This document shows positions 12,975-64,000 of a DNA stretch of 64,000 nt, piece by piece. The position numbers were made by a program, and so were the translations under genes. The notes beneath the pieces are model-generated. The model was not told the origin of the DNA and did no database searches. It worked only from the letters and a program-made list of their open reading frames with translations. This stretch comes from Eledone cirrhosa (lineage: Eukaryota). Each line of letters begins with the position of its first letter. The stretch's first letter is position 1. The DNA lies in assembly GCA_964016885.1 (NCBI GenBank), contig OZ024748.1, forward strand, positions 28,520,001 to 28,584,000, read 5' to 3'.

Positions 12975-15730
12975 GTAGTGGTTTAGTGGTAGTCGTAGTA
13001 GTGTTGGTCGTGGCAGTGGTGGACGTGACAGTGGTGGTAGTGGTGGTAATGGTAGTGGTGGTAGTGGTTTAGTGGTAGTTGTAGTAGTGTTGGTCGTGGC
13101 AGTGTTGGACGTGACAGTGGTGGTAGTGGTGGTAATGGTAGAGGTGGTAGTGGTTTAGTGGTAGCCGTAGTAGTGTTGGTCGTGGCAGTGTTGGACGTGA
13201 CAGTGGTGGTAGTGGTGGTAATGGTAGAGGTGGTAGTGGTTTAGTGGTAGCCGTAGTAGTGTTGGTCGTGGCAGTGGTGGACGTGACAGTGGTGGTAGTG
13301 GTGGTAATGGTAGAGGTGGTAGTGGTTTAGTGGTAGTCGTAGTAGTGTTGGTCGTGGCAGTGGTGGACGTGGCTGTAGTGGTAGTGGTGGTAATGGTAGA
13401 GGTGGTAGTGGTTTAGTGGTAGCCGTAGTAGTGTTGGTCGTGGCAGTGTTGGACGTGACAGTGGTGGTAGTGGTGGTAATGGTAGAGGTGGTAGTGGTTT
13501 AGTGGTAGTTGTAGTAGTGTTGGTCGTGGCAGTGGTGGACGTGACAGTGGTGGTAGTGGTGGTAATGGTAGAGGTGGTAGAGGTTTAGTGGTAGTTGTAG
13601 TAGTGTTGGTCGTGGCAGTGGTGGACGTGGCTGTAGTGGTAGTGGTGGTAATGGTAGAGGTGGTAGTGGTTTAGTGGTAGTTGTAGTAGTGTTGGTCGTG
13701 GCAGTGGTGGACGTGGCTGTAGTGGTAGTGGTGGTAATGGTAGAGGTGGTAGTGGTTTAGTGGTAGTTGTAGTAGTGTTGGTCGTGGCAGTGGTGGACGT
13801 GACAGTGGTGGTAGTGGTGGTAATGGTAGAGGTGGTAGTGGTTTAGTGGTAGTCGTAGTAGTGTTGGTCGTGGCAGTGTTGGACGTGACAGTGGTGGTAG
13901 TGGTGGTAATGGTAGAGGTGGTAGTGGTTTAGTGGTAGCCGTAGTAGTGTTGGTCGTGGCAGTGTTGGACGTGACAGTGGTGGTAGTGGTGGTAATGGTA
14001 GAGGTGGTAGTGGTTTAGTGGTAGTTGTAGTAGTGTTGGTCGTGGCAGTGGTGGACGTGACAGTGGTGGTAGTGGTGGTAATGGTAGAGGTGGTAGTGGT
14101 TTAGTGGTAGTCGTAGTAGTGTTGGTCGTGGCAGTGTTGGACGTGACAGTGGTGGTAGTGGTGGTAATGGTAGAGGTGGTAGTGGTTTAGTGGTAGCCGT
14201 AGTAGTGTTGGTCGTGGCAGTGTTGGACGTGACAGTGGTGGTAGTGGTGGTAATGGTAGAGGTGGTAGTGGTTTAGTGGTAGTTGTAGTAGTGTTGGTCG
14301 TGGCAGTGGTGGACGTGACAGTGGTGGTAGTGGTGGTAATGGTAGAGGTGGTAGAGGTTTAGTGGTAGTTGTAGTAGTGTTGGTCGTGGCAGTGGTGGAC
14401 GTGACAGTGGTGGTAGTGGTGGTAATGGTAGAGGTGGTAGTGGTTTAGTGGTAGTCGTAGTAGTGTTGGTCGTGGCAGTGGTGGACGTGACAGTGGTGGT
14501 AGTGGTGGTAATGGTAGAGGTGGTAGAGGTTTAGTGGTAGTTGTAGTAGTGTTGGTCGTGGCAGTGGTGGACGTGACAGTAGTGGTAGTGGTGGTAATGG
14601 TAGAGGTGGTAGAGGTTTAGTGGTAGTTGTAGTAGTGTTGGTCGTGGCAGTGGTGGACGTGACAGTAGTGGTAGTGGTGGTAATGGTAGAGGTGGTAGAG
14701 GTTTAGTGGTAGTTGTAGTAGTGTTGGTCGTGGCAGTGGTGGACGTGACAGTAGTGGTAGTGGTGGTAATGGTAGAGGTGGTAGAGGTTTAGTGGTAGTT
14801 GTAGTAGTGTTGGTCGTGGCAGTGGTGGACGTGGCTGTAGTGGTAGTGGTGGTAATGGTAGAGGTGGTAGAGGTTTAGTGGTAGTTGTAGTAGTGTTGGT
14901 CGTGGCAGTGTTGGACGTGACAGTAGTGGTAGTGGTGGTAATGGTAGAGGTGGTAGTGGTTTAGTGGTAGTTGTAGTAGTGTTGGTCGTGGCAGTGTTGG
15001 ACGTGACAGTGGTGGTAGTGGTGGTAATGGTAGAGGTGGTAGTGGTTTAGTGGTAGTTGTAGTAGTGTTGGTCGTGGCAGTGTTGGACGTGACAGTGGTG
15101 GTAGTGGTGGTAATGGTAGAGGTGGTAGTGGTTTAGTGGTAGTTGTAGTAGTGTTGGTCGTGGCAGTGTTGGACGTGACAGTGGTGGTAGTGGTGGTAAT
15201 GGTAGAGGTGGTAGTGGTTTAGTGGTAGTTGTAGTAGTGTTGGTCGTGGCAGTGTTGGACGTGACAGTGGTGGTAGTGGTGGTAATGGTAGAGGTGGTAG
15301 TGGTTTAGTGGTAGTTGTAGTAGTGTTGGTCGTGGCAGTGTTGGACGTGACAGTAGTGGTAGTGGTGGTAATGGTAGAGGTGGTAGTGGTTTAGTGGTAG
15401 TTGTAGTAGTGTTGGTCGTGGCAGTGTTGGACGTGACAGTAGTGGTAGTGGTGGTAATGGTAGAGGTGGTAGTGGTTTAGTGGTAGCCGTAGTAGTGTTG
15501 GTCGTGGCAGTGTTGGACGTGACAGTGGTGGTAGTGGTGGTAATGGTAGTGGTGTTAGTGGTTTAGTGGTAGTTGTAGTAGTGTTGGTCGTGGCAGTGTT
15601 GGACGTGACAGTGGTGGTAGTGGTGGTAATGGTAGTGGTGGTAGTGGTTTAGTGGTAGTTGTAGTAGTGTTGGTCGTGGCAGTGTTGGACGTGACAGTGG
15701 TGGTAGTGGTGGTAATGGTAGAGGTGGTAG
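12975..15730. repeat. 86-bp minisatellite, about 32 copies
   Basis: gtttag anchor at 12981, 13067 and 13153 (period 86). Highly homogeneous with a few diagnostic variants. Confidence 0.96.
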
Positions 15731-15949
15731 TCGTAGTAGTGGTGAACGCGAGAGTGGTGGTAATGGTAATGGTGGTAGAAGTATTGGTTGTTGGTCGTGG
15801 TAGTGATGCTGGAAAGGAAAACTTTGATGCTGGCGTTTTAACATGGTTAGTTCTTCCTCACCCCGGACTGTTAAAGGTTTAAAGAGAAGCACTCAGGCGG
15901 ATAATTATCACACTACACTACCATTGTACACACCGCACACACACATAAT

Positions 15950-25483: not shown

Positions 25484-28400
25484 TCAACAGCAAAGTCTCT
25501 CTGGGGGTTTACGAGTTCTCTTGGACCGTCTTCGATTGTCTGGTCCATACTCTGGAACGGGCAACAAGGTCTTGGGTCTGGTCTGTCTTGGAGTTAGTGG
25601 CACTATTTCCGAGATCTCCATCGGGTGATCTGTTGCAAATTCAAAAACAGTGTCTACTGCATCACCAGGTTCATTGTCTTCCTCAGCAGTGTACCGCGGT
25701 TGCAGCTGTTCCCAGTGTCGTCTCCACACCGGGCCATGAGGTATGTCCTTAACGTTGAAGCAGCGAGCACCCAATGACTTCTTAATGATTGCTGGTACCC
25801 ATCGGGGATCTTTGTCTCGGCGAGGTCCGTAGTACAGTGCATACACAGGATATCCAGCCTTGTACTGCCTGGTAACCTTAGCGACACCTGCCGAGTCCGG
25901 AGTCATCTGAGACTTATATGCTTCCTTAGACTGCTTGCCTTGAGCGATGTGTGCTGGCGAGGGCAGCAGAGAATCAATCCTTGTCCGTATCTGCCGGTGA
26001 TTCAAAAGTTCACTCGGAGAGAATCCACTGGATGTCGGTGTTCTCCGGTACTACATCAAGAACTCTTGAAGTGCTCGCTTCGGCGGAAGAGAAGTCTTCC
26101 TCGGAGCTTGTTTGAAGGTCTGCACCAAACGTTCCGCTGCTCCGTTGGTAGCTGTGTGGTAAGGTGCCCCTGTCAGGTGCGTGATCCCACATTCTTTGCA
26201 CCAGCTCTGGAACTCCTCAGAAATAAAAGTTGGTGCGTTATCGGTGACTAGCGTGTGAGGAAATCCGAAGTGCGCAAAGTCTTCTTCAAGCAGATCTAAA
26301 GTGGCTCTGGAGGACGTGGATGACGTAGGATGAATGCATGGATACTTGGAATAAGCATCCGTGATCACCAACCAATTACTGCCCATGAAATTTATTGCGT
26401 GGTCCAGGTGTAAGCGGCTCCACGGCTTTTCAAGTAATATCCATGGGTGAACTGGAGACTTGGATGGCTGGTTTTGATGTTTACCACACGAATCACATTG
26501 TCGACTGGTTTTCTCTATAGCAGCATCGATACCAGGCCAATAAACAGCAGTTCTTGCCAATTGTTTCATGCGCTCCATGCCAAAGTGTCCGAGATGCAGA
26601 AGATTGAGGATCTTTGGCTGTAAGCTATGTGGAATCACAACTCTCGATCCATGGATAGGGCATCCGTGGCAGATACTGAGTGAATCCGATAACTTCCGGA
26701 ACTTATTGACTTCGTCATTGATCTCAGTATTCTTTGGTGGCCAGCCTTCACGGACGTAGCGTATCACTGTAGATATCACTGGATCTTTCCCTGACTCTTG
26801 ACGGAGGACGTTAGCATCGATAGGTTGGACTTGAAGACTGAGAGCTTTGATGGCGCACACCATGTCCATGTCTTCACCATTTTCCTTCCTGTCAAAGTCG
26901 ATGTCATTACCAAATGGCAAGCGACTGAGGGCATCTGCATTGCCATGATCCGCTGTTTTCCGATATTCGATGGTGTAGTCAAACTGGTTCAGCCACAGGG
27001 CCCACCGTGCTAGTCGGTTAGCAGCGAGAAGTGGCGTCCCTTTCCTCGGACTGAACAGTAATGTCAGTGGCTTGTGGTCAGTTACGAGTATAAACTGATG
27101 TCCGTACAGATACTGATAGAACTTCTGCAAGCCAAATATGATGGCCAGGGCTTCCTTTTGAATTTGGCCGTAGTTACGCTGTGCAGAAGTAAGAGTCTTG
27201 GACACATTGGATATTGTGCGCTCGCTTCCATCAGGATAGCGATGAAACAGGACTGCTCCAATACCAACGTTTGACGCGTCGCAAGCCAGTCCCAAAGTTT
27301 TGTTTGGATCGAAGTGTATCAGAACTCGATCCGATGAAAGCACATTTTTCGACTGATCGAAAACTGACTGTTCTTCATCTCCCCACTTCCAAGTAGTCGT
27401 TTTTTTCGTAAGGCAATAGAGTGGCTCTGCCATGCTGGTCAGGTTTGGGATAAACTTTCCATAGAACTGAACTGAACCCAGGAAAGACTTCAAGCTTGAG
27501 ACGTTCGTTGGAGGTGGCATCTTTAAAACTGCTTCGACCTTGGATCCCTTCAGCCGACAAGGTATTCCACACTGGGTAGTGCAAACTGGCACTTGTCACG
27601 GCGACATCTGAGTCCTTTGTCGCACAGACGTGTGAGCAGACACTTTAGGTTGTTCAAGTGATCGTTTGCATCTTTCCCACTGACGAGCATGTAGTCCTGG
27701 AAGACGGCCACACCAGGTAGATCTTGAGTCAGGTTTTCTATGATCTCCTGAAAGTAACCAGGTGCTGACTTGATTCCGAAAGGGAGTCGTTCCTGCAGGA
27801 GCACCCCACGGTGAGTGCTGAGTGCAAGCCTGTGTTGACTTTCTGGAGCCAGCTTGATCTGATTATAGGCATCAGCAAGATCAATCTTTGTGTATCCGAA
27901 TCCACCTCCGAGCTTCTGCATCAGTTCCTCTGGGAGTGGCATTGGATGACAATGATCTGCAAGTTGGTCATTAATTCCCACAGAGTAGTCACCACAAATC
28001 CGTAGTTTGGGCTTCAGGTTGCCTGAAGTATGTGCTTTACGAATCGGTACCACTGGCGTTCCGTATTGGTTGAACTGTACTGGCTTCCAGATTCCTTTGG
28101 CGATGCCTTCTTCGTAACCTTTGGCCAGGTCATCACGAAGAGCAAACGGGACCGGGCGTGCTTTGTGAAAGACCGGTGTCGCGTCCGACTTGAACTTCAC
28201 TTCCAGTTCGAAGTCATTAAGACATCCCAATTCTTGCTTGAAGAGATCTGGGAATTCATCACACATGTTGTGACAATCTCGTTGCATGGAAATATAGGGC
28301 TCATTTGAGGTCTTTGGATGCATCACTTCTGCACCCTCACTCTTGGCCTGGCTGTCTATGCTTTTCAATCCTAGAGCATTGTCCACGGAAATTCCCAGAG

Positions 28401-28602
28401 ACTGGATAGCGTTTCGTCCCAGCAAATTAAGATCAGGGATCTTGGTGACGATGTAGGGTATTGAATTCCGTTTACCGGTCGTTGGATCCTTGGTTTGGCT
28501 CATGAAAGTTCCCAGAACGGGCAGGTCGTGCTTGCTGGCAGATTCAAACCGATGTTTGACATCTTGCAGCTTCGGTTTTCCTAATTGTTTCCAAACTGAC
28601 AA
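25484..28602 (-). pseudogene. pol: pol (protease remnant, RT, RNase H, integrase), disrupted
   Basis: RT: KIDLADAYNQI, LPFGIKSAP, FQDY (YxDD broken). RNase H: LACDAS, KEALA, TDHKPL, NADALSR. IN: HHCC, LHLD, TDNA, NGAAER. Frameshifts near 27560 and 26008, stop at 26051. Confidence 0.95.
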
Positions 28603-29680
28603 GGAAACAAAATTCCATTGTGAAAAGTCTGTTCTGGATTGTTATTGGCACTTTCAAACTATGAGTATCGTGGGGAACTTCACCAAGGATCGCCTTGACT
28701 AGCTCAGCTTTCGTGATTCTTTTCACATAATTCTGTGAGCGTTGATTACGTTGCTGATGTTGTTTCTTTCTACACACCGCTTGCAAATGTCCCTTTTTGT
28801 CACAAAAATGACATTTGGCTTCTTTGAAGGAGCAGTCTGTCGCTTTGTGGGCCTTTCCACATCGGTAGTACATCTCCTGGTCTGTGGAATAAGACTGCTG
28901 ATGGTTCTTTCGAGGACCCTTGTTCTTGTTCTGCTGGACCTTGTAGACTTGCTTGGTTTTGGAACCGTAAACAGTTTCCTTGGCAACCTTTGCTGCGTTT
29001 TCGGTCCCGATGGCAACTTGGACAGCACGGGCGAAATCTAGTTCTGTATCCTTGATCTTGAAAATAGCCTTCAACACAGCTTCATTATTGACAGAACATA
29101 TAAATCTCTGTCTTAGAGCTTCATCTTGTGGATTTGTGATCGAAGGAAAATCACAGGTAGCTGCATCCTGACGTATACGTGCTGCCAGATCCTGGAGAGT
29201 TTCGCCTGGCTTCCGTTGCATGTCACTCCAGAACTTGAAACGTTCTCTCACAATGAAAAGTTTTGGGTCGAACTGTTCTTTCATGAAGTCAACAATTTCG
29301 TCCATTCTCAACTTGTTGATATCCTTAGGCGGATTTTGTTGAGCAGCCAGATTTGCAAGTTGTTTGTAGATAGCAGCCGTCTGATTAGTCAGGAACACTT
29401 GTGCCATGCGTTGCTCGGGTACAGCGTTAGCAGCCACAAACGTGCAGAATCTTGACCAGTAATCAGGCCATAGTTCTGTTGTTGAATCAAAAGCAGCAAA
29501 TGGTGGGATGAATGCTGTTGGTGTCGAAGCAACAGGCGACGCCAATAAACTCTGTTGTTCAAAATCTCGAGCACCAAACAGTTTTATCAGAGTGTCCATA
29601 TCTTTCTTGTGTTGATGCATTTGTTGTTCCATCTGTTCTCTAAACAACTTTATTAGCTCCGCTGTTTGTTGTTCCGCCAT
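28603..29680 (-). pseudogene. gag: gag with two zinc knuckles
   Basis: ATG at 29680 (MAEQQT...). Capsid-like QRKPGETLQDLAARIR...CDF. Knuckles YYRCGKAHKATDC (first Cys lost) and CHFCDKKGHLQAVC. Confidence 0.9.
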
Positions 29681-29787
29681 GTTTTTATGATAAACAATTT
29701 CCCGGCAATGTAGGTAAATCCTATCGGCAATGTAGGTAAATCCTATCGGCAATGTAGGTAAATCTTATCGGCGACGCCAATAAACTC

Positions 29788-36154: not shown

Positions 36155-36584
36155 ACATACATACATACATACATACATACATACATACATACATCTAGTT
36201 AGGAAATTACAAGTACAATCCATTAATGGAACAGTAAAAATATGTAAAACATTCCAAACATTTTGCATCTAATAACTGCATATACACATGCACACATACA
36301 ACTCAAAACATACACATCCATATCTACACATGCATGCATACATAATCTACCTAGTTGATGTTGTGTAAATTCCAATGAGAGTGTCTTGTGTCTATGTTAG
36401 AAACCGACTCTCTCTCTATTGGTAAACATTTGTGAAATTATAAAACCAGAAGAACATACATACATACATACATACATACATACATACATACATACATACA
36501 TACATACATACACATACATACATACATACATACATACATACATACATACATACATACATACATACATACATACATACATACATA

Positions 36585-36942
36585 CATCTGATTCACAAAA
36601 GAGATAGGGATGCAGGCAAAACAACTACATGTGACAACAAGTGCAGACTCTGCAGAATTAACATAGATGTCAGCCATGTAATAAGCAGCTGTCCAAAGAT
36701 GTCATCGCGGTACTATCTAACTATGAGGCATGATGTAGTGGCCAAAACACTGTACAATGCAATCCGTAGGAAAGATAGCCCCGGCAATAAACACATTAAA
36801 AAGCTCCAGCAATTTGGAAGATATACACATACATAATATGAAATGTTCCAGTAAAAACCCCAATAAAATGCAGGCATAACAGACCAGATATAATGATATG
36901 GAACAGGGAAAAGAAGACATGCACCATAATGGAAGTTAGTTG
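36585..36942 (+). pseudogene. Fragment of an RLE-type (R4/Dong-like) LINE: CCHC finger plus PD-(D/E)xK endonuclease
   Basis: Frameshifted translation KCRLCRIN..VSHVISSCPKMSSRYYLTMRHDVVAK...HNRPDIMIWNREKKTCTIMEVS. Follows (ACAT)n. Confidence 0.8.
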
Positions 36943-36964
36943 AGCAGCTAACTTCCATTACTTC

Positions 36965-37520
36965 TTTCTACTTTTGGTACAAGGCCAGCAATCCACCTTC
37001 TGAAGACGGGGCTGAAGCCAGCTGCCTTGAGGACAGCCTCCTGGTACCGATGGTCGACCCTATCGTATGCTTTCGATTGATCTAAATTGATCAGAGCCCC
37101 ACCGAAGCCAGGTTTACACCCTACCCTCTCTATGATGTATCGCATGAGGTGGAGGTTGTCGTGTATGGACCTGGTCGGGATTCCGCAAGTTTGCGCCTCC
37201 CTACCAAATCCCCGACGACAAGCACCAACCTCTTCGCTAACACCTTGGCCAAAATCTTAAACTCCGTGTTGAACAGCGTTATGGGCCTGAAATTGTCTAA
37301 TGTTGTTGTCGTTGGTGTTGTCGTCGTTGTTGTTGTTGTTGTTGCTGTTATCACTGTTACAGTTGGTTATATCTTTGGTGCCGCCGCTGTTATTGTTCTC
37401 GGTGCAGTTGGTATTGTTGTTGTTGGTGCTGTCGCTGTTTATGTTCTGGTTAGTGGTGTTAATTTCGTTGCTGTTTTTGTTGTCATCATTTCTGTTGTCT
37501 GTCTTTTGGTTGTCGCTGTC
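36965..37520 (-). mobile_element. Chimeric Tx1 fragment (ORF1-like Asn-rich stretch + RT + SINE A tail)
   Basis: DNFRPITL...LDQSKAYDRVDH...RRWIA fused to the SINE tail attgctggccttgtaccaaaagtagaaa. Confidence 0.8.
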
Positions 37521-38219
37521 CGAGATGCGCGCAGGGCGACGAAACCGTCCTGCACGCACTCGTTCAGTGCCCGAGCATTGCTGATTTGTGGAGCTATGTC
37601 GAACAGTTGCTGTCGCGTGTAGAGTGGATTCGGTTATCGACTGAGACCATTGTGCAGATAGCCCCGCCATCCTCCTTTAAAGAGGAGGAAGGGCAGGCAG
37701 TTTTCATCTGCCTGGTGGCCATGGCGAAAGAGATTGTGTGGTGGACAAGGTTGAAAGGGTTGAAGATAGACACTTTCCTCTTAGGCGAATCCCTGATTAA
37801 CTTTTTCAAGTTTCACTTGAAGAGGAAAATCAGGGTGGAGAGGTAAGTGCTGTCTTCTAGTAAATTTGTTGAAAGGTGGGTGAAAATGGCGAGTCTGGTC
37901 CGAGTGAAAGAGCCCGCTCTGAGTATGCGCCTGTAGACTGAGGAGTGGGAAAACTGAGAGAGGGTGCTTGCCCTGGTGGTCAGGATGGCCGTGGTCTTTT
38001 GTGTAGTTTTCGAAACGAGTGACCCTCGAAAGTCTCCCCCCTATTGGGGAATTTTTTTGTCGTTTGAATTTTTTTTTATATTTCTATCTTCTTGTTATAA
38101 CCTTTTTACACGGCGAAAACCCACTTTGTATCGTCCTGTACCCTTCTGTGCCGTCTGTAATGTTTTTCTTCATGTTAGCCCTTGTGATCAATAAAGAAAT
38201 CATTATTATTATTATTATT
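37518..38219 (+). mobile_element. 5'-truncated Tx1-clade LINE (ORF2 C-terminus, 3'UTR, (ATT)n tail)
   Basis: Homologous to 44658-45345. Ends aataaagaaatc(att)6. Confidence 0.92.
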
Positions 38220-39299
38220 GGCTGTCAGTAAAGACGTATTTTTGGAGCTCCGCAAAAGTAGGAAATTTTCTGTTTATTTTCATTTATAATAATTGTTGTA
38301 TTCTTTGAAAAGGGTCGTAAGACTTCCGTCTTTGCCCTCTGAAGGGGTGACTGTGTAATATTTGGGCCTTTTGGCCCAAATATTTGAACTTTTTTGTATT
38401 TTAAAAAAATTCTCGGAAAAAAAAAACATGGCTGAGCCACGCCCCCCAAATTTAAGTCTGCTGTCGTGTGACAGCGACCTAAATGTTGAGAGGAGGGAAG
38501 CAGCAAACACATCGATCTATACTACAAATACATTTAGCAACACCATCACAAACAACATGAACAGTTGCAGCAGCAACATCAATAGTGAGAACAATAATCT
38601 TTAAAAAAAATCAGTCTACAGGCACGGAAGTGCTGTCAGACGGACCTGCCCAAAAGATGCGCGCAGAGCGACGAAACCGTTATGCACGCACACGTCTAGT
38701 ATCCGTGCATTACTGACTTGTGGAGTTATGTCGAACAGCTGTTGTCGCGTGTAGAACGGATCCGGCTATCGGCCGAGTCCATAGTGAAGATCGACCCGCC
38801 GCCTTCTTTTGGCCAGGAAGGGCAGGCAATTTTCCTCTGTCTGGTGGCAGTAGCGAAGAGGTTGTATGGTGGACGAGGCTGAAAGGACTGAAGACAGACA
38901 CTTTTCTCTTCGGCCAATCCCTCATCAACTTCTTCAAGTTTCACTTGAAAAGGAAGGTGAGGGTGGAGAGAGAAGTGCTGCCCCCCCCCCCCCCCCCCAA
39001 TACATTTGCTGAAAGGTGGATGAATGTGGCGAGAATGGCCCATGTGAGTGGGCCTACTCTGATCATGCGCCTGTAAGTGGGTAAATTTGAGGAGGAGAGG
39101 GGTGCCCTTCCCGGATGCTCTCGAAGCGTCGGGTCGTTCAGGATTGTTGTATTTTCTTGTTACTTTGTTATTGTTATTTATATTGTTTACACGTTGTATT
39201 TGTATATGTAAACTCCCACTGTCCCAGTCTTTTGTATTGTCCCCTATATGTCGGCCCTTGTGGCCAATAAATGAATTCATTATTATTATTATTATTATT
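38220..39299 (+). mobile_element. Internally deleted Tx1-clade LINE (5'UTR and ORF1 start joined to the ORF2 3' end)
   Basis: 5' end resembles 62881 onward (gagctccgcaaa, hairpin before ATG 38428). From about 38615 it matches 44625 onward. (ATT)n tail. Confidence 0.8.
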
Positions 39300-39513
39300 G
39301 AATGCTATGGTTGACGGTGGCTCGGCTCTGTAAGGTATTGTAAACTTTGACCGCTATAACAATTGTAAATTGTTTTAAACTTTAACCAACTTGTAGACAA
39401 AAACACCCTCCTCCTCGTGAGAGGGGTCTTTCTGCCCGTTATTTGGCCCTTCGGGGTTAAATAACTGCTTATTGGGTTTTGTGCCCAATATTTATTTTAA
39501 ACCAAAAAACAAC

Positions 39514-41617
39514 ATGGCTACGAAAAAGAATTTTCATAGGTCACTCCCACTCATTCCATCTTCTTCTTCCTCAATCGTCACTACAGCAGAGAGAAGATTG
39601 TCTCTCTCCCTCCCTTCTTTAAATGTGTCTCTCTCCCTCCCTTCTCTTTAGCAAGCGACGACAGAAAAGAAAAGTCTCGTGCAAAGCGTGCAAGATTTCT
39701 CCACGACGACGACAACGACGAAACAGGTGTGAGGGAAATACGAAAACCCATTTCATTCGTCTGACGTCAGGAATAATAGCAGTAGCAGCCGTAATAACAA
39801 CAGCAACAGTGACAATGAAAACAACAGTAGCAGCCACAACAGCATCAGCAGCAGCATAAACAACAACAGCATTAGCAGCAGCAACAACAACAACAACCAC
39901 AGCAACAGCGGCGGCGGCAGTAGTCGTAGTACCTGCAGCAACAACAAAAGTAACAGCAGCTCTGACGACAACAACAACAACAACAGCAGCAAAGAAAAAC
40001 CAATCTCGTTTGCAGGTATCGCAAAGAACCTGGAAACCATCCTCATAACAAATGAGGAATTAGAGGAAGCGAAGAAGATGGTGACAAAAACTGGACACCG
40101 AGCAATCTGCAAGGCAGCGGAAAATGTTTTAGAAACCCAACAGCACTGTACGGTCACGTACCGTACAGTAAGTACAAAATCCCGTAGGGTTGAAAGAGCC
40201 ACAGAGGCTCAAATACAAAAAGCCTTGGGGTCTGTGTGGCAGCGGAAAACGCACATCACCCGAGGCAAGAAATATGCCACCGTAGACGTACTTTTTGCCA
40301 CACCCCAGGAGGCAAAGGCTCAATCCTTAGTGACCCTAAGGAGCGAGGAAATGGTGTTGGTGCCCTCCTACTGCGGGCAAAAAATTGTGAGGGTCAAACT
40401 GACCCACGTCCCCCCCCGGGATGGCCCCTTCTTGGCTGGCCGCGTCTGTCCTCGTCGGAATCGAGGACAAAACAACTGTACTGCAAGTACAGAAAAAAGT
40501 AAGAGAAGATTGGGTCGGCAACTCCATTGAGATGTTAATCCAAACCAACTAGGAGTGCATCGAAGCTATCGCGGATGTGATAGACTTCGATAACGGCACT
40601 CAACTGCCCATAAGTGTTGAGGGCAAACGCCTGAAATGCTTTCGCTGTGGATCGAAGACTCACCTCAGGGCCTTCTGCAACGAGAAGACCCTGAGAAAGG
40701 AGAAAACCCCCCTCCTTCCGAAACCGGCTCCACGGCTACCAGCAACAGGACAAGCGGTAACCAGGAACGATAGGTCCGTGGCACCCATACCCACGCCACG
40801 GAAATCAAAAACAGCAGCAGCAGTGGAAGTATTAACAACAACAACAGCAATACCAAATGCAGCTGCAACAGAGACTCCAGTGCAAACATCACCAACAACA
40901 ACAAGTGAAAGAGTGGAGCTGGTACCCCTCCTTGACCTCACAGAATCAGACATGGAGTGTGAGGTGGGAGAGGGATAGCAAAAGGTCGTAAGAAGGCACA
41001 AACGCAGAAGCAGCGCATCGTCGCCTTTGAAAAGGGAGGAAAGAAATGAAAAAAGGGTAAAGGCTACTGCAAAGAGACTCACAGCAGCAACACCACCAAC
41101 ACCATCACCACCCACACTAGCATCACCATTACCACCGGCGACAACCCCACCGCCAACAACACCTTCAACACCACCACCACAAGCACCAACATCGCAAACA
41201 CAACAACAAAACACACACACCGAGCAATAACGACAAGAAAATAGCAGAACCACACCCCACCCACAGAAAAACAAATGCACGGCAATAAATACACACAACA
41301 AGAAACTAATGACTTACATAATTGAACACACAGACATTTCACAACACGACTACATAATACCAGCACCAATCAAAACGCCAACTAACATAAGACTGCTAAA
41401 AATAGCACAGAAACAATACACAAACATTAAAACGAAATTCCCCAACGCAGTTGGTGATTTCAGAGACCTAGGAGGGACACTCAACCGAAGAGTATATTCG
41501 GACATACTCATAGAAGAGCCGACGACCAGCCGAAGGGACGATTCAACGGTCCCTTCACCAGACGATCAAGTGAAAAGGGATGGAAAAACCATCCCTCCTC
41601 TACGAAAAGTACGGTAA
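39514..41617 (+). pseudogene. Tx1 ORF1 (nucleic-acid binding, zinc knuckle), disrupted
   Basis: CFRCGSKTHLRAFC knuckle. SFAGIAK...EELEEAKKMV is homologous to the copy at 63066 onward. Several stops and a frameshift at the poly-C near 40410. Confidence 0.82.
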
Positions 41618-41652
41618 GTGGTCTTTCCCATCTTTTCCACTCTATTTTAAAC

Positions 41653-44600
41653 ATGACCTCACTCAGAATAGGCAGCATAAATGCACGTGGCTTGGGGTCG
41701 TCATGGAAGCAGGGTCACCTGCTCAACGACCTCAGGTCACTAAACATAGATGTAGTGGCCATCAGCGAGACCAGAATCTCCGAAGCACGGGCCTTCACAC
41801 CGATCTTCGGCGGCTACGATGTGTACGCATCTCCCAGCCGTCCTGGATCGGGGGGAGGAGTTGCTGTGCTTTTTCGGAGAGGTTTGGACCTCGTCATACG
41901 GACCATCTTCCTGGACCCAGAGGGTAAGTTGGTGGTGCTGGACGTGACCAGCGGAGACGGGCAAGCTTTCAGGTTAGTGGCCGTCTATGCCCCGACAGGA
42001 GCAGGGCGGCCTGATTTCTTCCGGCGTCTGGAGACCTTTCTTGGAACGTCCCGCTCTTTAGTGTTAGTGGGCGACTGGAACGGGATCTTAGATGCACGCT
42101 GGGACTGTGTGGGATTAGCAGATAGGGGTGGAGGGTGCAAGAGCCTCACCAACCTGCTCAGGCGTTTTGAACTGTCTGACAGGTACCGATTGGATTTCCC
42201 GAATGTGCCAATGTGGACTTGGACAAATCGCATAGGGTCATCCAGATCATATCTAGATAGAGTATTTTGTAGGGAAATAGATAGGTCTAGCATAGGCTGT
42301 CCACAATTCAAGATAGTCAGCTACACGGACCACAAATTCGTGATCTGTGTGCTTGACTTAGATAGGCTTCATAGACGAGGACCCGGCTACTGGAAGCTAA
42401 ACGCGTCCTTACCAGCGCGCAAGGCCTACAGAGACCCGATTAGCGAACTAGTTAAGCGGCCGTTGACGGGGGCCATCGTCAACAACAAGTGGTGGTTTGC
42501 TCTGAAAAGAGCGATTAGAATAGAATCGATTAGGTTTAGTAAAGCTTTAGCAATAGAGAAAAATAGAGCAGAGGGAGAATTAGTTAGAAAATTAGACGAG
42601 GCGCTTAGCAAAGGCATTGCGACCGACGTGCTTGCGGCGAAATTGGCCCTTGACCAATTCTTCAATGCAAAGCACGAAGGCTGCGTTGTCAGAGCAAGAG
42701 TGCGTGCTCTCAGACACGAGGGGACGAAAGCCGTTCAATGGGCCCGAGTGGCGGAGGCGCGTCGTGGCAACAAAGCCACGATCCGGTCTTTGGTGGACCA
42801 CGACGGGCGCATGCTACTCGATCCCGAGCAAATGTGTGAAGCTTTTCAGCGACACTTCGCTCAGCTGTTCGGGGGCAGCGGTGGGCCGGGTCGAGGGATG
42901 GACTTTAGTGTCTACCTCGACGGACTGCCGCGGCTCTCGGCCACTGAGGCGTAGTGTTGCGAAAAGCCGATAACAGCCGCTGAAGTAAGGGAGGCAATGA
43001 CTGGCTGCACAAGGGGTAAATCGCCTGGTTTGGATGGTCTGCCCTATGAACTTTACGTACAGATGCCAGACTTGTTCGGAGGCCTCTTGGCGGACGTCTA
43101 CTGCAACTGGCAACAGAACGGGAGAATTCCCAGTTCTGTGAACCGAGGAGCGGTGGTACTGCTGAGAAAGGACCCGAACAAGGGGGATAACATAGATAAT
43201 TTCCGGCCCATAACTCTGCAAAACACAGAGTTCAAGATTTTGGCCAAGGTGCTAGCAAAGAGGTTGGCGCTTGTCGTTGGTGGTCTGGTGGGAGAGGCGC
43301 AGACATGCGCCATTCCCGACAGATCCATCCACGACAACCTCCACCTCATGCGATACATCGCAGAGAGGGTAGCTAGGGAACCTGGCACGGGTAGGTCCTT
43401 GATCAATTTAGATCAGTCGAAAGCTTTCGATAGGGTCGACCATCGTTACCTAGCGGCAGTCCTGAGGGCGGCTGGCTTTGGGCCCGTCTTCAGAGGCTGG
43501 ATCGCTGCCATGCACAGCGACATCTGCTCTGTGGTGAGAGTGAACGGTCACCTTTCGGAACCGTTCAACATCATGCGCTCGGTCCGCCAAGGATGTCCCC
43601 TCTCGTCCCTCTTGTACGTATTGACTCTCGAGCCATTACTGCACAAACTGGAGACGTTGAGGGGCGTCCCGCGCTAACTAGGTTGCGGAAGATCCGTGTC
43701 AGCATATGCGGACGATGTCACCGTAGTGGTGTCGAACGCCAAACACATCGAGGCGATCGGCACTACACTAAGAGAATACGAAGCGGTGACAGGAGCAATG
43801 ATCAACCAGGAAAAGTCAGTGGGCCTGCAGCTCGGCACCTGGAGAGGCAGGTCCATGCCGTCCAACAGCGTCGTCGGACGCTGGACGGACGGACCGGTTA
43901 AATTGCTAGGGGCCTGATTCGGTCCGGACCTCCAGACGGACAAAAACTGGGACGAGGTAACGAGCAGGGTGGCTTCTCTCACCCAGAAATGGGCGAAGAG
44001 GAAGCTATCGCTGAAAGGTCGAGCGGAGGTGGCTAACGCGTACATCGCGTCCGTCATCTACTACCGCCTGACCGTCGTACCTTGTCCTAAGCCTCACCTG
44101 ACTGCGCTGGAGCGTTTGCTCTTTCGCTTTTTGTGGAAGGGACGCGCTGCGATGGTCAGGCGGTCCATCTGTTGTCAACATCCGCTACGTGGAGGGCTGG
44201 GCATGCCGTGGCTGATGATGCGCAGGCACGCGCTCAGGCTACGACATCTCCACCTCTTCCTCGACGGTGATCAGGTGTGGTCGCCGTTTGCTAGACACGT
44301 ATTCCCCAGCTCGTTTCCTTGACGGAGCTGCAGTCCTGGGTCAAGCGAAGACCGAGAGGGAGCGCCTGGAGACTGGAATGTCTTCTGGCGCTCACAGCCC
44401 TCGACCAATCGGGCAATGTGATCGGTGGAAACATTCCACCTCGGCGTTCTATAGAGGATTAGTGGAGGGGAAGAGCGACGACGTACTTGGGGAAACTCTA
44501 GGCGTCGACGAAAATCAACTAGCCAATCTCTTCGGAAGAACTTTCGGGCCAGGGCCTATGGACAACTTCCAGAAATCTCTGGCCTGGCAGTGCTACCGAG

Positions 44601-45073
44601 GAGTCTTGCCAGTTCGCGATAAACTCTACAGGCATGGAGGTGCCGTCAGCCGGGCATGTCCGAGATGCGCGCAGGGCGACGAAACCGTCCTGCACGCACT
44701 CGTCCAGTGTCCGAAAATTGCTGACTTGTGGGTTTATGTCGAACACCTGCTGTCGCGTGTAGGACGGATCCGGCTATCATCTGAGTCCATCGTGAGGATT
44801 TCCCCGCCCTCCTCCTTTAGCCGGGAAGGGCAGGCAGTTTTTATCTGTCTGGTGGTCATGGCGAAAGAGATAGTATGGTGGACACGTTTGAATGGGCTGA
44901 AGACGAGCACTTACCTCTTCGGTGATGCTCTGATTGACTTTTTCAAATTTCATTTGAAAAGGAAAATCAGAGTAGAGAGGGAAGTGCTCTCTTCCCAGCA
45001 TTTTGTTGAAAGATGGGTGAGAGAAGCAAGAATGGCCCGAGTGAATGGGCCTACTCTGAGTATATATCTGTAA
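41653..45073 (+). pseudogene. Tx1 ORF2 (APE endonuclease, reverse transcriptase, C-terminal zinc finger), disrupted
   Basis: APE: SINARG, ISET, VYAP, VGDWN, LDR, TDH. RT: KSPGLDG, FRPITL, LDQSKAFDRV, RQGCPLS, YADD. Finger CPRC...HALVQC. Stops at 42952, 43675 and 43915, frameshifts near 44310-44440. Confidence 0.96.
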
Positions 45074-45376
45074 ATTAAAGGTGGAAAACTGGGAGAGGGC
45101 ACTTGCCTTGGTGGTCAGGGTCACTGTGGCCTTTTACTGGGCTTTCTCCACAAATGTCCCTCCGAAGTCTCCCCCCTATTGGGGAATTTTTCATTGTTAT
45201 TTCTTTGTTACATCCTCTGTTTTTGTTTTTTACACCCAGAAATGCCCATTTGTACCGTCCTGTATTGTCCTGCACTGTCCTTAATGTCTACTTTATGTAA
45301 ACCCTTGTGGTTAATAAAGAAATCATTATTATTATTATTATTATTAGTAGTAGTAGTAGTAGTAGTATTAATATTA

Positions 45377-45537
45377 TGGATTGGCAGTATCGGTAGAGGG
45401 TCAGACGCCATGCTTTGCAGCATAGAGTTCCGACCCTTTATGATCCGAGTTCAAATCACGCCGAGGTTAACTTTGCCTTTCATCCTTACGGGGTCGATGA
45501 AATGAAGTACCAGTAATACACTGGAATAATTGCTGAT
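45377..45537 (+). mobile_element. SINE family A adjoining the Tx1 tail
   Basis: Consensus head and body. 3' end lost into (TA)n. Confidence 0.88.
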
Positions 45538-58744: not shown

Positions 58745-59664
58745 TGCGGGGGAACCGTGTCAGCATATGCCGACGACGTCACCGTAGTGGTGTTGAGCGC
58801 CAAACACTTCGAGGCGATCGGCACTACACTAAAAGAATTCAAGGTGGTGAGAGGAGCAATGAGTAACCAGGTAAAGTTGCTGAGCCTGTTTCTCAGCACC
58901 TGGAGAGGCAGATCCATGCTATCCAACTGTCTTGTCTGGCCCTAGACGGACGGACCCGTTAAATTGTTAGGGGCCTGGTTCTGTCCGGATCTCCAGACAG
59001 ACAAAAACTGGGACGAGGTGACGGGCAGAGTGGCTTGCCCAGATATGGACCGAGAGGAATCTATCCCTGAAAGGTCGAGCGGAGGTGGCAAACGCGTACA
59101 CCATGTCCGTCATCTACTACCACTTGACCGTCGTGCCTTGACCTAGCCTCGCCTGACGGCACTGGAGCCTTTGCTCTTTCGCTTTTTGTGGAAGGTACGC
59201 GCTCCGATAGTCACACGTTCCATCTGCTGTCAACACACGCTATGTGGAGAGCTGGGCATGCCGTGGCTGATGATGTGCAGACATGCGCTCAAGCTACGAC
59301 ATCTCCACCTCTTCCACGACGGTGAACAGGTTTAGTCATCGTTTGCTAGACACTTTTTCCCCAGCTCGTCTCCTTGGTGGTCTAGCGAAGACCGAGAGGG
59401 AGCGCTTGGAGATTGGAATGTTTTCAGGCGCTTACATCCCTTGACCAGTCAGGCGATGCGATCGGTGGGAACTCCACCTTGGTGTTCTATAGAGGGTTAG
59501 TGGGGGGAAAGAGCGACGACGTCCTTGGGGAGACTCTGGGTGTCGACGAAAATCAACTAACCAATCTCTTCGTGAGGACTTTCGGGCCAGGGCCCATGGA
59601 GAACTTCCAGAAATCCCTGGCCTGGCAGTACTATCGAGGAGCTTTGACAGTTCGGGATAAGCTC
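58745..59664 (+). pseudogene. Internal Tx1 ORF2 fragment (YADD to pre-zinc finger)
   Basis: Colinear with 43684-44626 (VSAYADDVTVVV...FQKSLAWQ...VRDKL). Confidence 0.93.
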
Positions 59665-59719
59665 CCACTTTTAATCATGGTATCAGTTAATTTTCTCCTT
59701 TTCTTGCACTCTTGTATTA

Positions 59720-62345
59720 TTTTTTTTTCAATTATCTTGCTTTATGTTCATACGAGTTACCACCAAGTCACAACCAGTGACCTCAAGAGACAACAAGGTC
59801 CGCCATGTTCAAGAAAGAACATACACACACACATGTATCTTTAGATGTTTAGACTTGTGGTGCATTTATATTGACAGAATCTTCCTTAGTATATGGGCAG
59901 TTCCCATTAGTACGATCTTTTGTATTTCTTCTAAATGCGGGTTTCCTGGGATTTGGGATAAGTAATCATTAGACCCTCTTAGGTATCATTCCTAGAGTGC
60001 CTACAACCACTGGTGTTGTTTTAGTTCTCAACTTCCACATTTTTCCAATCTCTATCTCTAGGTCTTGCTCAATTTTTTCAAATGTTTTTATAGATACATT
60101 CTTGTCTATAGGAACAGTCATGTCAATTAGCAGGCATACCCTCTTTTTAAAGTCCTTCAGTATTATATCAGGTCTATTTGCATCTATTTTTCAGTCTGTT
60201 TGGATGCTAAAGTTCCACAAAATTGAGATGTGATCTTTTTCAAGTACGGGAGGTAGTTGAAGCTCCCACCAATTCTTTTGATGGGGAAGGTCAAAATTCT
60301 TCACATTACTCAATGTATGTATTATGCAGCTCTGTCATGCCTGTTTAGGTATTCGGTTGGAGTTATAGGACTGCACATTGAAATTATATGATCAATGGTC
60401 TGGTTATTTTTTTCATACACTGCATAATGGGTTGTATCCATTTTTAATCATGTTGGCTTGATAATGTTTTGTTGGCAGACACTGATCTTGTGCTGATATA
60501 ATCAGTCCTTTAGTCTCCGATTTCAGTCCAGAGGATGCCAACCACTGATGACTTAAAGTTTTGTCAACATCAGGATTGTTAGCTCTGTCTGGGTATTTTC
60601 GATGCTGAGGCTTTTCTTGCCATTTCTTAGCCAGTTTCTGTAGCAGTTTTTTCTTTGCAGTTACTTTTACCTGCTTTGCTTTTTCTGTGTTTCAGCAGTA
60701 AAGGGAACTTCTGAAAATTGTAGTTCATTATTGTATCTATGGGCATCTTTTGTAATGGAGTATGATCTTTTGTTGTTTTCATGTTTCAAAACGAGTTTGG
60801 TCATCCAAAATTTGGAATTTTGCCTTTCTCTGGGGTTTCTGTTTGCTGGATTTTCTAAGATCTAAACGCAGATGTTCAACTGTTATATTTTCCCATGTTT
60901 GTTCCTCAAGGTGAACTGTATCTTTCATTTGTCTGTCTAACTATGGAGCATGTATATTATGAACATTTTTCTTCGGCCCAGATCTTTTTCCAGAATTCTT
61001 GCACTTCCTCCTTGGGTGTTATTGATTTAGTAGTTATTGTTGACTTGCCAATTTTTCTGCAGAAGGTTTTTTGGGTTGTTTTTGAACTTATTATTGTCCT
61101 TATTGAATCTGGAGCGTTTTTCAAAGCGCCTTATACGAGCAGCTTTGGCCGACACTTTTTGCTTGATTGTTTCTATCATCATATCTATGTCGCTTGTTGA
61201 TTTTATATTGTATTATCTTTTCAATTTTCCGAGTTTAGTTTGTTTAACATGTTCATCTACTTTGTAGTTTGCTAAAATTTCTGTCAGATCGGAGAAGGTT
61301 TATTTGGCGATTGATGTTCTCTTGCCAAGTAGGTTTTTTGTGGGCATTCCTTTGTTTTTTTCATTTTCACTCCACATAATTGAGTGGTGACTTTAGCCGA
61401 TGCATGATAGAGATGATTTAGTTCAGTAATGTTTAGTTTATTTGTGGTAATAATTGTCTTTAAGAGTTATGCGAGTCTTGCGTATTATCCTCTGGTTTTG
61501 TTTGGAGTTCTGGATCTCCATGTCAGATTCTTTCATTTTTATCCATTCGATTATAATTTTATTTTTCAAGTTGGCGAGTTCATTCGCATTCATTTCTTTA
61601 TCATTGATGATCTCTTCATTGTTTTCCTTTTGAGTTTCATCTTGAACATGCACTCCTTCCACTTTTTCGATCCCTTCATTAATTTGTTCTGCTGTCAGTG
61701 ATTCCGCCCCGACCCTGGGATTTAAAGTGTTACAATTTACTTCGTTTTCACTGACACCTGTTTCATTTTCCCTTCGGTGACTTTGCGCTAACTGCTTGAT
61801 CTGATCAATTTCTATGTCAGTTAGTAATTTCTTCTTAACGATGTTTCTTCGTATATTAGCTAGTGTTTTTACTATCAATATAATCTCTGTTTTCAGGATG
61901 TTTCTTTTTCCAGTGGATATATGTTTGTTCTGTATTCTACTGATGGGCAGTAATTGGCAGTGTAGAAAGTCTCAAGGACTTTATTGTCTTCTCTTGACCA
62001 TTTTCCGCTCCTTATCTTTAGATTTGTTGGTGGTGAACATGGAGTGCCATCAGTAGGAGTATTCCGGTTATGGGAGGTCTCCAGCTCCGAATTGATGGGA
62101 AGGTCTGAACCATTAGGTGATTTTTCGACCCCAGTCTGGTTCCTCTCTGGAGGCCGCGGCCCTTGTTGAACCGGGTGATGACTGATCCGGTATGAGTTTT
62201 TATCCTTTGTTATTGGATTTATTTTGTTGAATTTTATCCTTAGCCACCAAGGGATAATCATTTCGAGTTACCACTCCTAGGACGTAGTGTCAACCAAGAC
62301 TATACCCCGCCGGCCGCCAGCCCGGTATTTCTTGGTCACGGGTTA
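59720..62345 (-). mobile_element. R4/Dong-clade RLE LINE, both ends present, RT deleted
   Basis: N-terminal KWSREDNK and LANIRRNI. C-terminal GLKSET..AQDQCL, IDHIIS.C, RHD, NRPDIILKD..LIDMTVP, VVVGTLG, TAHILRKIL*. TAA-rich 5' flank. Confidence 0.85.
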
Positions 62346-62364: not shown

Positions 62365-62418
62365 ATAAATGTTTCCTTAATGTGAGCCCTATATGGCTAA
62401 TAAAGAAATTATTATTAT
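62365..62418 (+). mobile_element. Extreme 3' stub of a Tx1-type LINE
   Basis: agccctatatggctaataaagaaattattatt, flanked by attattataa on both sides. Confidence 0.6.
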
Positions 62419-62439: not shown

Positions 62440-62844
62440 TGGCAGTATCGGTAGAGGGTCGGACATGCTTTCCAGCGTAGTTACATCCTTTTACGATCTG
62501 AGTTCAATACATGAAACTATTATTACTATTATTATTATCATAACCAAGAGCGGTGAATTGGCAGTATCGGTAGAGGGTCGGACGCCATGCTTTGATGCAT
62601 GAGTTACGGCCCTTTCCATTGTGAGTTCAAATCCCGCCGAGGTTAACTTTGCCTTTCATCCTTACGATAAAATAAAGTACCAGTAATGTACTGTGCAATT
62701 GCTGGCCTTGTGCCAAAAGTAGAAACAATTATTATTATTATTATTGGCCGAGGTTAACTTTGCCTTTCATCCTTACGGGGTCGATAAAATAAAGTACCAG
62801 TAATGCATTGGGTAATTGCTGGCCTTGTGCCAAAAGTAGAAACA

Positions 62845-62880
<36 letters not shown>
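62440..62880 (+). mobile_element. Three tandem SINE family A copies or fragments separated by (ATT)n
   Basis: 62440-62508 head, 62550-62745 full copy, 62746-62880 5'-truncated copy with (att)12. Confidence 0.9.
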
Positions 62881-64000
62881 GGCGACCTACATAGTAAATC
62901 GTATCATCGTGAGCTCCGCAAAGGTTTGTTATTTCAGTTATTTAAAATTGCCATTTATGGAAAATTTTTATTTTATTGAAAAGGACACTCAAAAATATTG
63001 GGGCCTTGAGCCCAAAATTTAAACTTTTTATAATTATCAAACAAAAGATTTTTTCTTTGAAAAATAATGGATGACCCAGATTCACTCCTTCCTCACAATC
63101 CAACACCTCACACCGATACCACCATTGTAAATATTGCTACGTTTGCCAACACTGGAATTGTAAGCAGTAGCAATATTTTAAATTTGTCTCAGGCAGACGT
63201 TCATTTCCCGCCATTACCAAGGACTGCAGATGTTAAAGCCGCCACCACCACCACCACCACCACCACCACCACCGCGACAACCCCCCCCCCCCCCCTCACC
63301 ACCACCACCACAGCGACAACAGAAACAAAAGAAAAATAATAAATTAACTCATGATATCGAAATGAATTCAACCAAAATGAACTCTTCCACACCGAACACC
63401 ACTGACGCCACCACCACCACAACTGAAACTAAAATTAACAATAGCAAAAATAACGATAATAACAACAGCAACAATAAAATTAAGAAAACTACCCTGAGTT
63501 TTGCCAAAGTAGCAAAAACGTGCGAAGCGATCCAGGTAACTCAGGAAGAATTAGACGAAGCCAAAGGAATGGTAAAGAAAGATGGGTACAGGGTCAGCCC
63601 CCCCCTAATAAAATGGAGCATGTCGCCTATGCACCGTGTCTTATCGAACAATTAACATAAAATCGCGCCGAGTGGAGCGGGCATCCGAGTCCCAAATCCA
63701 AAAAGCTTTGGGACATGTGTGGGCAAAAAAAACCCACATCAGACGTGGGCAGAAGTATGGAACCGTGGACGTGTTCTTTGAAACACCACAGGAGGCCAGA
63801 GAACACTCCGTGGCCCCATTAAAAAGTGACGACTTCACACTCATCCCAAGCTATTGTGGCCAGAGACTTGTGAAGATCAGGGTGACCCACGTTCCACCGG
63901 CCATCGAAATTCCCTGGCTAATGGCCGCCGTCCTCGCCGGCATCGAGGCCAACACCAAAATAATAGAAATAGCAAAAGAAAAGCAGGAGAACTGGTCCGG
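62881..64000 (+). mobile_element. 5' end (UTR and disrupted ORF1) of another Tx1-clade LINE, runs off the window
   Basis: Starts right after (att)12. ATG at 63067. SFAKVAK...EELDEAKGMV, KSRRVERA, PSYCGQ homologous to 40005-40500. Confidence 0.88.

Follow-up and report, generated by a model that had tools for sequence, protein, structure and literature searches.

An abundant L1/Tx1-type LINE group of Eledone cirrhosa lies in phase behind ATT microsatellites and ends in the same repeat

We analyzed a 64,000-nucleotide stretch of the Eledone cirrhosa genome (NCBI GenBank assembly GCA_964016885.1, contig OZ024748.1, positions 28,520,001 to 28,584,000; hereafter the window) in which copies of a long interspersed nuclear element (LINE) are stacked head to tail between ATT repeats. 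They belong to a young and abundant L1/Tx1-type group whose members have an in-phase (ATT)n tract directly before the 5' end and another as their tail. The fixed orientation and phase, the ATT repeat on both sides, the stacking of distinct lineages and one target duplication that starts at the tail are direct observations. We consider it likely that the LINE nicks the AAT strand and primes on its own AUU tail, with each insertion leaving a new target.

ATT tracts on both sides of the LINE

Copies A, B and C form the stack in the window, and a copy D starts near its right end. Numbers beginning with L denote loci in the same genome that were used for comparison.

36986-37519, minus strand: inverted, internally deleted B-like LINE piece (start of open reading frame 1, ORF1, and a reverse transcriptase, RT, piece), 85% and 80% identical to B copy L227; abuts the 5' end of copy A
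37518-38201, plus strand: copy A, a 5'-truncated 3' end with the ORF2 C-terminus, 3' untranslated region (UTR) and AATAAA; 77.6% identical to C copy L125
38177-38189, plus strand: imperfect 3' hairpin of copy A
38202-38219, plus strand: (ATT)6, tail of copy A and apparent target of copy B
38220-39278, plus strand: copy B, a B-type 5' UTR and ORF1 start joined at about 38615 to the ORF2 C-terminus and 3' UTR
39253-39265, plus strand: copy B hairpin, GGCC-CTTGT-GGCC
39279-39299, plus strand: (ATT)7, tail of copy B and apparent target of copy C
39300-45324, plus strand: copy C, a near full-length LINE of 6,025 bp, 97.5% identical to L125 over the whole length
45300-45312, plus strand: copy C 3' hairpin, AACC-CTTGT-GGTT, followed by AATAAA and GAAATC
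45325-45345, plus strand: (ATT)7 tail of copy C, followed by (AGT)n
62368-62416, plus strand: LINE 3' stub with (ATT)3 at 62408-62416, 81.5% identical over 54 nt to the copy C 3' end
62881-64000, plus strand: 5' end of copy D, which extends beyond the window (5,812 bp; L159) to a terminal ATT tract, after which a C-type head begins

The 3' part of copy A is 77.6% identical to C and 77.5% to a B copy, and a B copy is 70.0% identical to C over ORF2. Three distinct subfamilies, 70-78% alike, are thus joined by (ATT)6 and (ATT)7, as a preliminary description of this sequence had proposed. Copy A was placed by tblastn at ORF2 residues 1002-1139 (75.5%), and copy B, from which most of the middle of the element is gone, matches L227 at 87.8% in its 5' part and 79.1% in its 3' part. 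The 5' ends that start with G directly behind same-orientation ATT runs, at 38220, 39300 and 62881, were confirmed, as were the tails at 38202, 39279 and 45325. Other details of that description needed correction. A fourth tail, given at 62409, is a run starting at 62408 on the 54-nt stub, and the run upstream of 62881 (12 ATT units, 62845-62880) is the tail of a short interspersed nuclear element (SINE), not of a Tx1 copy. The array was said to begin at 37518; the heads of B and C do lie at ATT, but copy A is truncated and its 5' junction is with the inverted B-like piece.

That inverted piece is joined on its other side, through a 7-nt microhomology, to about 27 nt of an antisense SINE tail (window 36960-36990), a junction that may reflect a template switch or a deletion. 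A lone ORF2 fragment of the LINE, 84% identical to C, lies at 58745-59664 on the plus strand.

The same junctions recur throughout the genome (3.0 Gb searched; head and tail counts are exact pattern matches). Among C-type heads, 2,523 of 2,585 (97.6%) lie directly after ATTATT and in phase; nine lack a T at position -1, and eight of these nine follow in-phase tracts with the last base changed. For D-type heads two classes were counted, 1,614 behind ATTATT and 10 without a T at -1. Each of the 30 B-type heads examined (the best 30 of 41 loci) has two or more ATT units, either adjoining it or a few bases away. As background, the share of positions directly preceded by ATTATT is 0.09% in the window and 0.2% across 30 SINE loci. 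The genome holds no fewer than 6,399 near-identical C-type 3' ends and more than 4,100 intact heads, and 68 of 70 examined 3' ends continue with ATT. This sample comprises the first 30 listed and 40 of the next 60; ends paired with a C head were omitted, as were two members of a short three-copy cluster. The targeting of ATT in a fixed orientation and phase, with tails that recreate the target, had been proposed from the window and holds genome-wide with strong enrichment.

In a control set of distant LINE loci from metagenomes, 79 of 80 being relatives at 25-33% identity, (ATT)4 occurred anywhere in 2 of 80. A first metagenome scan for the DNA context of the closest relatives came back empty. 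Contigs of three of four public runs from other organisms cover the C-type 5' UTR, and among the matches listed no loose end lies at the C-type head.

Copies without a 5' end cannot have carried an upstream tract, so that ATT in front of them would be target DNA. The 70 3' ends were classed as 21 full-length copies, 32 truncated copies and 17 that ran beyond the fetched stretch; by eye, L170, L253 and L267 (internal rearrangements) and L260 (full length with a small deletion) were dropped from the truncated set and L164 was added, giving 29. All 21 full-length copies lie behind an ATT tract. Among the 29 truncated copies, 12 lie behind (ATT)2 or more and three more at or near a SINE or ATT tail, against a background of 0.5-1.2% for ATT within 6 nt of a junction; TT/ATT microhomology is frequent at their 5' junctions. 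The truncated copy L241 has a target duplication of 16-17 nt; its first bases, at the tail, are ATTATT, and beyond them it runs into non-ATT sequence. The truncated copies and this duplication argue, indirectly, for the ATT tract being target DNA.

For 90 heads, the 30 best of each type (among them the three heads of the window and two pairs of near-duplicates), the upstream neighbor was a Tx1-type 3' end in 27 cases, a SINE tail in 16, an antisense Dong-like LINE in 19 and none of these in 28. The sequence downstream of the 70 3' ends was an antisense Dong-like 3' end (22), a head of the LINE group (12), a SINE head (4), an antisense SINE tail (1) or other (31). The LINE is thus not the sole builder of the growing landing pads of the preliminary description, as 27 of 90 heads follow a Tx1-type 3' end.

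These data also bear on the possibility that the ATT is cargo: an RNA that starts inside the upstream tract would carry ATT at both ends and write both into arbitrary sites, with SINEs and Dong-like elements arriving later. The almost invariant phase of full-length copies would suit this, as would the unclassified sequence upstream of 28 of the 90 heads and the fact that no empty site was observed. It would not explain why 12 to 15 of 29 copies without a 5' end still lie behind ATT, nor why the L241 duplication runs into non-ATT sequence on both sides, and 62 of the 90 heads lie behind elements that bring or use such tracts themselves. We regard the cargo explanation as very unlikely.

If the LINE inserts behind ATT and ends in ATT, each insertion likely provides a new landing site, and head-to-tail stacks would result. 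On contig 1, 23 of the 99 gaps between the first 100 3' ends are at most 7 kb, all of them between same-strand copies, where 1.2 would be expected. Pairwise differences are 0.4-1.2% within one five-copy array (L299-L302; G000:C1:55419000-55458999) and 0.3-1.0% between its copies and two that lie on different contigs. Such array copies, as near to distant ones as to one another, fit separate insertions, and together with the distinct lineages joined in the window they bear out stacking by this route. The array is bounded by a SINE tail and a SINE head.

Alternatively, no active targeting would be needed if stacks formed by tandem duplication or by ATT tracts recombining unequally, or if insertions in microsatellites passively survived. 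The first three copies of the array are separated by two antisense Dong pieces of 885 bp that are identical; these speak for this alternative and against separate insertion throughout, and suggest that part of the array came from duplication, conversion or transduction; a 3' transduction ending at the next ATT tract is possible. The locus pairs L036/L037 and L119/L120, each with the same flank, point in the same direction. Such processes would not join three lineages that are 70-78% alike, nor leave array copies as close to distant copies as to their neighbors, and passive survival cannot yield 97.6% of heads in one phase and orientation. As the main cause this explanation is largely refuted, and we give it almost no credence.

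A SINE and Dong-like LINEs at the same repeat

Two further kinds of retroelement adjoin the ATT tracts in the window:

45372-45535, plus strand: tailless SINE (head and body) after the tract of copy C; 79-92% identical to other window copies
62550-62880, plus strand: two stacked SINE copies, each with the hairpin TGGC-CTTGT-GCCA and an ATT tail (62728-62745 and 62845-62880)
59715-62345, minus strand: internally deleted Dong/R4-like LINE, 87-92% identical to the element downstream of L128; right end set by eye

The SINE is very abundant, with 137,049 exact copies of its 26-nt tail giving a lower bound on copy number. Its 3' end and that of the LINE both carry an invariant CCTTGTG, equally far from the tail. 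The hairpin stems (AACC/GGTT, GGCC/GGCC and TGGC/GCCA) keep their pairing through changes on both sides, as seen in three of the four inner stem pairs among seven hand-picked ends. Non-repeat duplications of 11-25 nt (mode 16 nt) were detected at 30 of 113 SINE-type ends. The ATT start was built into this search, while positions 4-6 and -1 are independent of it: A occupies position 4 in all 30 duplications and T positions 5 and 6 in 27 and 23, and position -1 is C in 18, T in 8, A in 4 and G in none. The same 3' hairpin and the ATT-starting duplications suggest that the LINE likely mobilizes the SINE.

The SINE head contains motifs that, judged by eye, resemble the A and B boxes of pol III promoters; a comparison with Rfam gave no match at threshold. 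A search for the exact SINE hairpin on a LINE returned three sites, all SINEs. Two of these SINEs end in a LINE-type AATAAA...GAAA tail (L304:1330-1560 and L305:1420-1560), which would fit shared ancestry or template switching in these two cases. A second SINE family has the same hairpin tail, and contigs of another high-copy short repeat continue, in two runs, into ATT runs near 7295 (L296:7200-7400), so this repeat is possibly a further ATT-tailed element. At the other end of the LINE, each of the three 5' UTR types has, just upstream of ORF1, a short inverted repeat, GGG...CCCAA (at approximately 38357-38386, 39472-39492 and 62995-63022); in some D copies it reads GGGC-CTTGT-GCCC and resembles the 3' hairpin.

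The antisense neighbors of the LINE are of a different type. The ORF of the element downstream of L128 has its best matches among R2 proteins, which are also the only structure matches of these neighbors (residues 307-1019); an RT is present, and a comparison with Pfam found no APE family. From their C-terminal motifs and the R2 match we assign them provisionally to Dong/R4-like elements, and a label of 'RTE' was rejected on the same grounds. Dong elements belong to the R4 clade and have a C-terminal restriction-like nuclease. Among copies beside the LINE, the only ones sampled, the tract is bordered by a Dong-like 3' end at 22 of 70 loci and by a Dong-like 5' end at 19 of 90; in each of these cases (19 upstream, 22 downstream) the element is antisense to the LINE. 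One truncated LINE copy, L178, lies behind a same-sense Dong tail. A single transduced Dong piece behind all downstream neighbors was rejected, as piece lengths range from 385 to more than 3,300 bp. Downstream of the LINE at L136, L137, L143 and L147, Dong-like elements form head-to-tail stacks of their own, separated by (AAT)n and including two different Dong families, and a further Dong-like fragment with an RHD motif lies at window 36444-36836 on the plus strand.

We tentatively propose that the ATT repeat is a shared, self-renewing niche, on which the APE-type LINE and the Dong LINEs may have converged from opposite strands, with the tail of either providing a target for the other, and in which the LINE may drive a major octopod SINE through the hairpin, adding more than 100,000 new targets. 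Mixed retroelement arrays would then be expected genome-wide, and the LINE would be the first named motor for octopus SINE expansion.

The window also contains Ty3/Gypsy-like long terminal repeat retrotransposon frames with RT, RNase H and integrase (25484-29764, minus strand) and two minisatellites, at 5898-9954 (period 19 bp, about 215 copies) and 12964-15743 (period 86 bp, about 32 copies, 97% matches).

LINE proteins and the route of insertion

Two ORFs were located in copy C:

39514-41617, plus strand: ORF1, with a low-complexity N-terminus; frameshifted here and placed by tblastn with the open ORF1 of L126
41653-45073, plus strand: ORF2, with APE endonuclease (PF03372), reverse transcriptase (PF00078) and zf-RVT (PF13966)

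ORF2 of copy C is broken by stops and two frameshifts; it is open in L125, and L126 has an open ORF1 frame of 734 aa. PF03372 matched ORF2 with E 5.6e-14 and the PF13966 zinc finger was above cut-off, and the APE catalytic motifs of L1 are visible in an open ORF2 copy. ORF1 matched no Pfam family above cut-off, and a CCHC-like knuckle was recognized in it by eye. The best match among solved structures is L1 ORF2p (E 3.5e-53 over APE and RT), followed by R2 (2e-21). The N-terminal APE, an RT nearer to L1 than to R2, the C-terminal zinc finger and the separate upstream ORF1 identify an L1/Tx1-type element. The closest named protein is from Argonauta hians (74%), and an automatically named match is the Alligator 'transposon TX1 149 kDa protein' (41%). 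In a quick RT tree, which contained no labelled Tx1, the genome copies grouped with Argonauta and an NCBI protein (support 100), sister to an ENA clade (100) and apart from vertebrate sequences; APE-RT clusters were found in the ESM Atlas, where they carry no taxa. Judged by the domain layout and the automatically named match, the group is likely a member of the Tx1 clade proper.

C- and D-type copies differ in their 5' halves. L125 and L160 are 95.3% identical over 3,766 columns of ORF2 and 3' UTR, whereas no DNA match was found over the 5' UTR and ORF1 (window 39300-41617 vs 62881-64000), and the ORF1 proteins are 57% identical over 122 aa. By this comparison the difference is a predicted swap of the 5' module, and a common ORF2 and 3' UTR behind different 5' modules suggests that the ATT preference travels with ORF2. 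The sequence of window 41656-45324 is present in public runs of 16 studies and many organisms, six of them at half the words or more, and two runs (organisms A and B) show very high depth over it. No RNA was among the public runs listed for this stretch, which are uninformative on expression.

In the reading we favor, the nick made by the APE domain would fall on the AAT strand between T and a purine (5'-ATAAT/G or /A, as read from the SINE duplications), a step similar to the poly(T)-A junction cut by the L1 endonuclease (PMC1950540). The freed (AAT)n end would pair with the (AUU)n tail of the RNA and prime reverse transcription, and a second nick about 11-21 nt along would yield the duplication, a range that includes the tracts of 18 and 21 nt between the window's stacked copies. 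If the same enzyme made the second nick at ATT|ATT, it would fix the phase of the 5' junction, because this is the only TpA step on the ATT strand of a pure tract; the phase could equally be fixed by added bases or by an RNA that begins with a short ATT leader. The LINE 3' junction, GAAATC|ATTATT, would reproduce the favored C|ATTAT site, and older copies would attract newer ones. With lesser weight, we suggest that the ORF2 protein recognizes the CUUGU hairpin and mobilizes the SINE, whose tails would supply more targets, and that the opposite strand of these tracts serves Dong-like elements.

Several results weigh against this reading. No simple repeat is present at the 5' junction of 10 of the 29 truncated copies, and four others lie behind different units (CTT twice, ACT and AAT). 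A clean duplication was found in only 1 of 24 truncated copies scanned, so that 30 SINE duplications compare with a single LINE duplication (L241). A search around 38 ends of long copies gave no non-repeat duplication, as would be expected if the duplication were itself ATT, and in these 38 ends no SINE duplication flanked a SINE-plus-LINE composite. Among the joints listed for L126, a highly repetitive stretch, no empty allele was seen in four public runs. The end common to SINE and LINE is only about 30 nt long, and the SINE lies mostly at short ATTA sites and the LINE at tracts, both of which one enzyme must explain. The SINE duplication lengths are even modulo 3 (10/12/8) and that of L241 is no multiple of 3, which makes the phase-locked second nick a guess that would apply to pure tracts only.

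Some of these points would also fit a loosely specific APE that nicks AT-rich DNA, where only (AAT)n ends that pair with the (AUU)n tail are extended and the phase comes from an ATT leader or added cDNA bases. The SINE duplications need only ATTA(T) and no fixed length, truncated copies join at TT/ATT microhomologies, and a tail repeat that matches the first base of the duplications has been reported for RTE-related elements (PMC6007223). Selection by priming would not account for the skew at position -1 of the SINE duplications (18 C and no G among 30), a base outside the part that pairs with the tail and one that points to a preference of the nuclease. The Xenopus Tx1L endonuclease is, moreover, sequence-specific in vitro (PMC1950540). 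We consider the priming explanation unlikely. Nuclease and priming models have the same outcome, a self-renewing target, and the copies with open ORF1 and ORF2 offer a clean system to separate nuclease specificity from tail priming.

Comparison with known systems

LINEs with site specificity tend to be uncommon and bound to one fixed repeat of the host; in this group every insertion would enlarge the target. Retroelement junctions confound ATT markers and repeat-masking in these genomes, and a testable partner can now be named for a very abundant SINE. L1-Tx1 and Dong-R4 elements are annotated as abundant and active in octopods (PMC13282606, PMC8967140), with 13 recently active L1-Tx1 and five Dong-R4 families in Octopus vulgaris (PMC13282606), and these annotations probably include the present families. 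They describe no target: in the excerpts available, the word 'target' is absent from PMC13282606 with its one supplement and appears once, in an unrelated sense, in PMC8967140. Retroelement insertion into its own tails offers a mechanism for the clustered transposable element landscapes of octopods, whose hotspots have been mapped and are unexplained in the former paper. Our literature search found neither an ATT-targeting Tx1 nor a Tx1 partner for the octopus SINE, and none was named in the excerpts of PMC4824008, PMC4758252, PMC3747384 and PMC6007223; Repbase and the Tx1 target tables were outside its scope, so prior cataloguing is possible.

Mammalian L1 and Alu are comparable in the APE-RT-zinc finger ORF2 and in duplications of similar length. 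Their A-rich tails resemble the T-tract/A target. The present LINE differs from L1/Alu in having an (ATT)n tail behind AATAAA and no poly(A), in its 97.6% in-phase targeting and in a conserved 3' hairpin. Duplications in the L1 clade measure 7-18 bp (PMC6007223). A tail that resembles the target is not new in principle, with precedents in L1/Alu and in tandem SINEU-3 (PMC4494074). In crocodilians, Tx1-Mar was proposed to mobilize SINEU from their shared target, and tandem SINE insertions there sandwich a duplication (PMC4494074). The target of Tx1-Mar is a Mariner transposon, while the LINE/SINE pair described here also has a common 3' hairpin and repeat tail.

Dong elements target (TAA)n in Bombyx, Anopheles and the snail Biomphalaria (PMC3812793), the same double-stranded microsatellite as that of the LINE, used in the opposite orientation. 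That review places Dong among the APE types, while the neighbors found here give no APE match; it also calls microsatellite targeting poorly understood.

The closest parallels are the Tx1 families Kibi in (TC)n, Koshi in (TTC)n and the crocodilian families in (TTCC)n or (TTTC)n (PMC4494074, PMC3812793), likewise APE-type LINEs in one microsatellite unit. Target preference in Tx1 has been taken as more than 20% of flanks being of one sequence type (PMC4494074), a value exceeded here by 97.6% of C heads. The Kibi and Koshi units do not account for our junctions, as (CTT)n occurs at only 2 of 29 truncated ones. Directly adjoining (CTT)n, the Koshi unit, was noted at several junctions (L016, L057, L139, L155, L181, L183). 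Thus, the LINE works like the known microsatellite-targeting Tx1 elements and is no new class of element, but it differs from Kibi and Koshi in its ATT unit, with (TTA)n one base from the (TTC)n of Koshi, in its molluscan host and in its thousands of copies.

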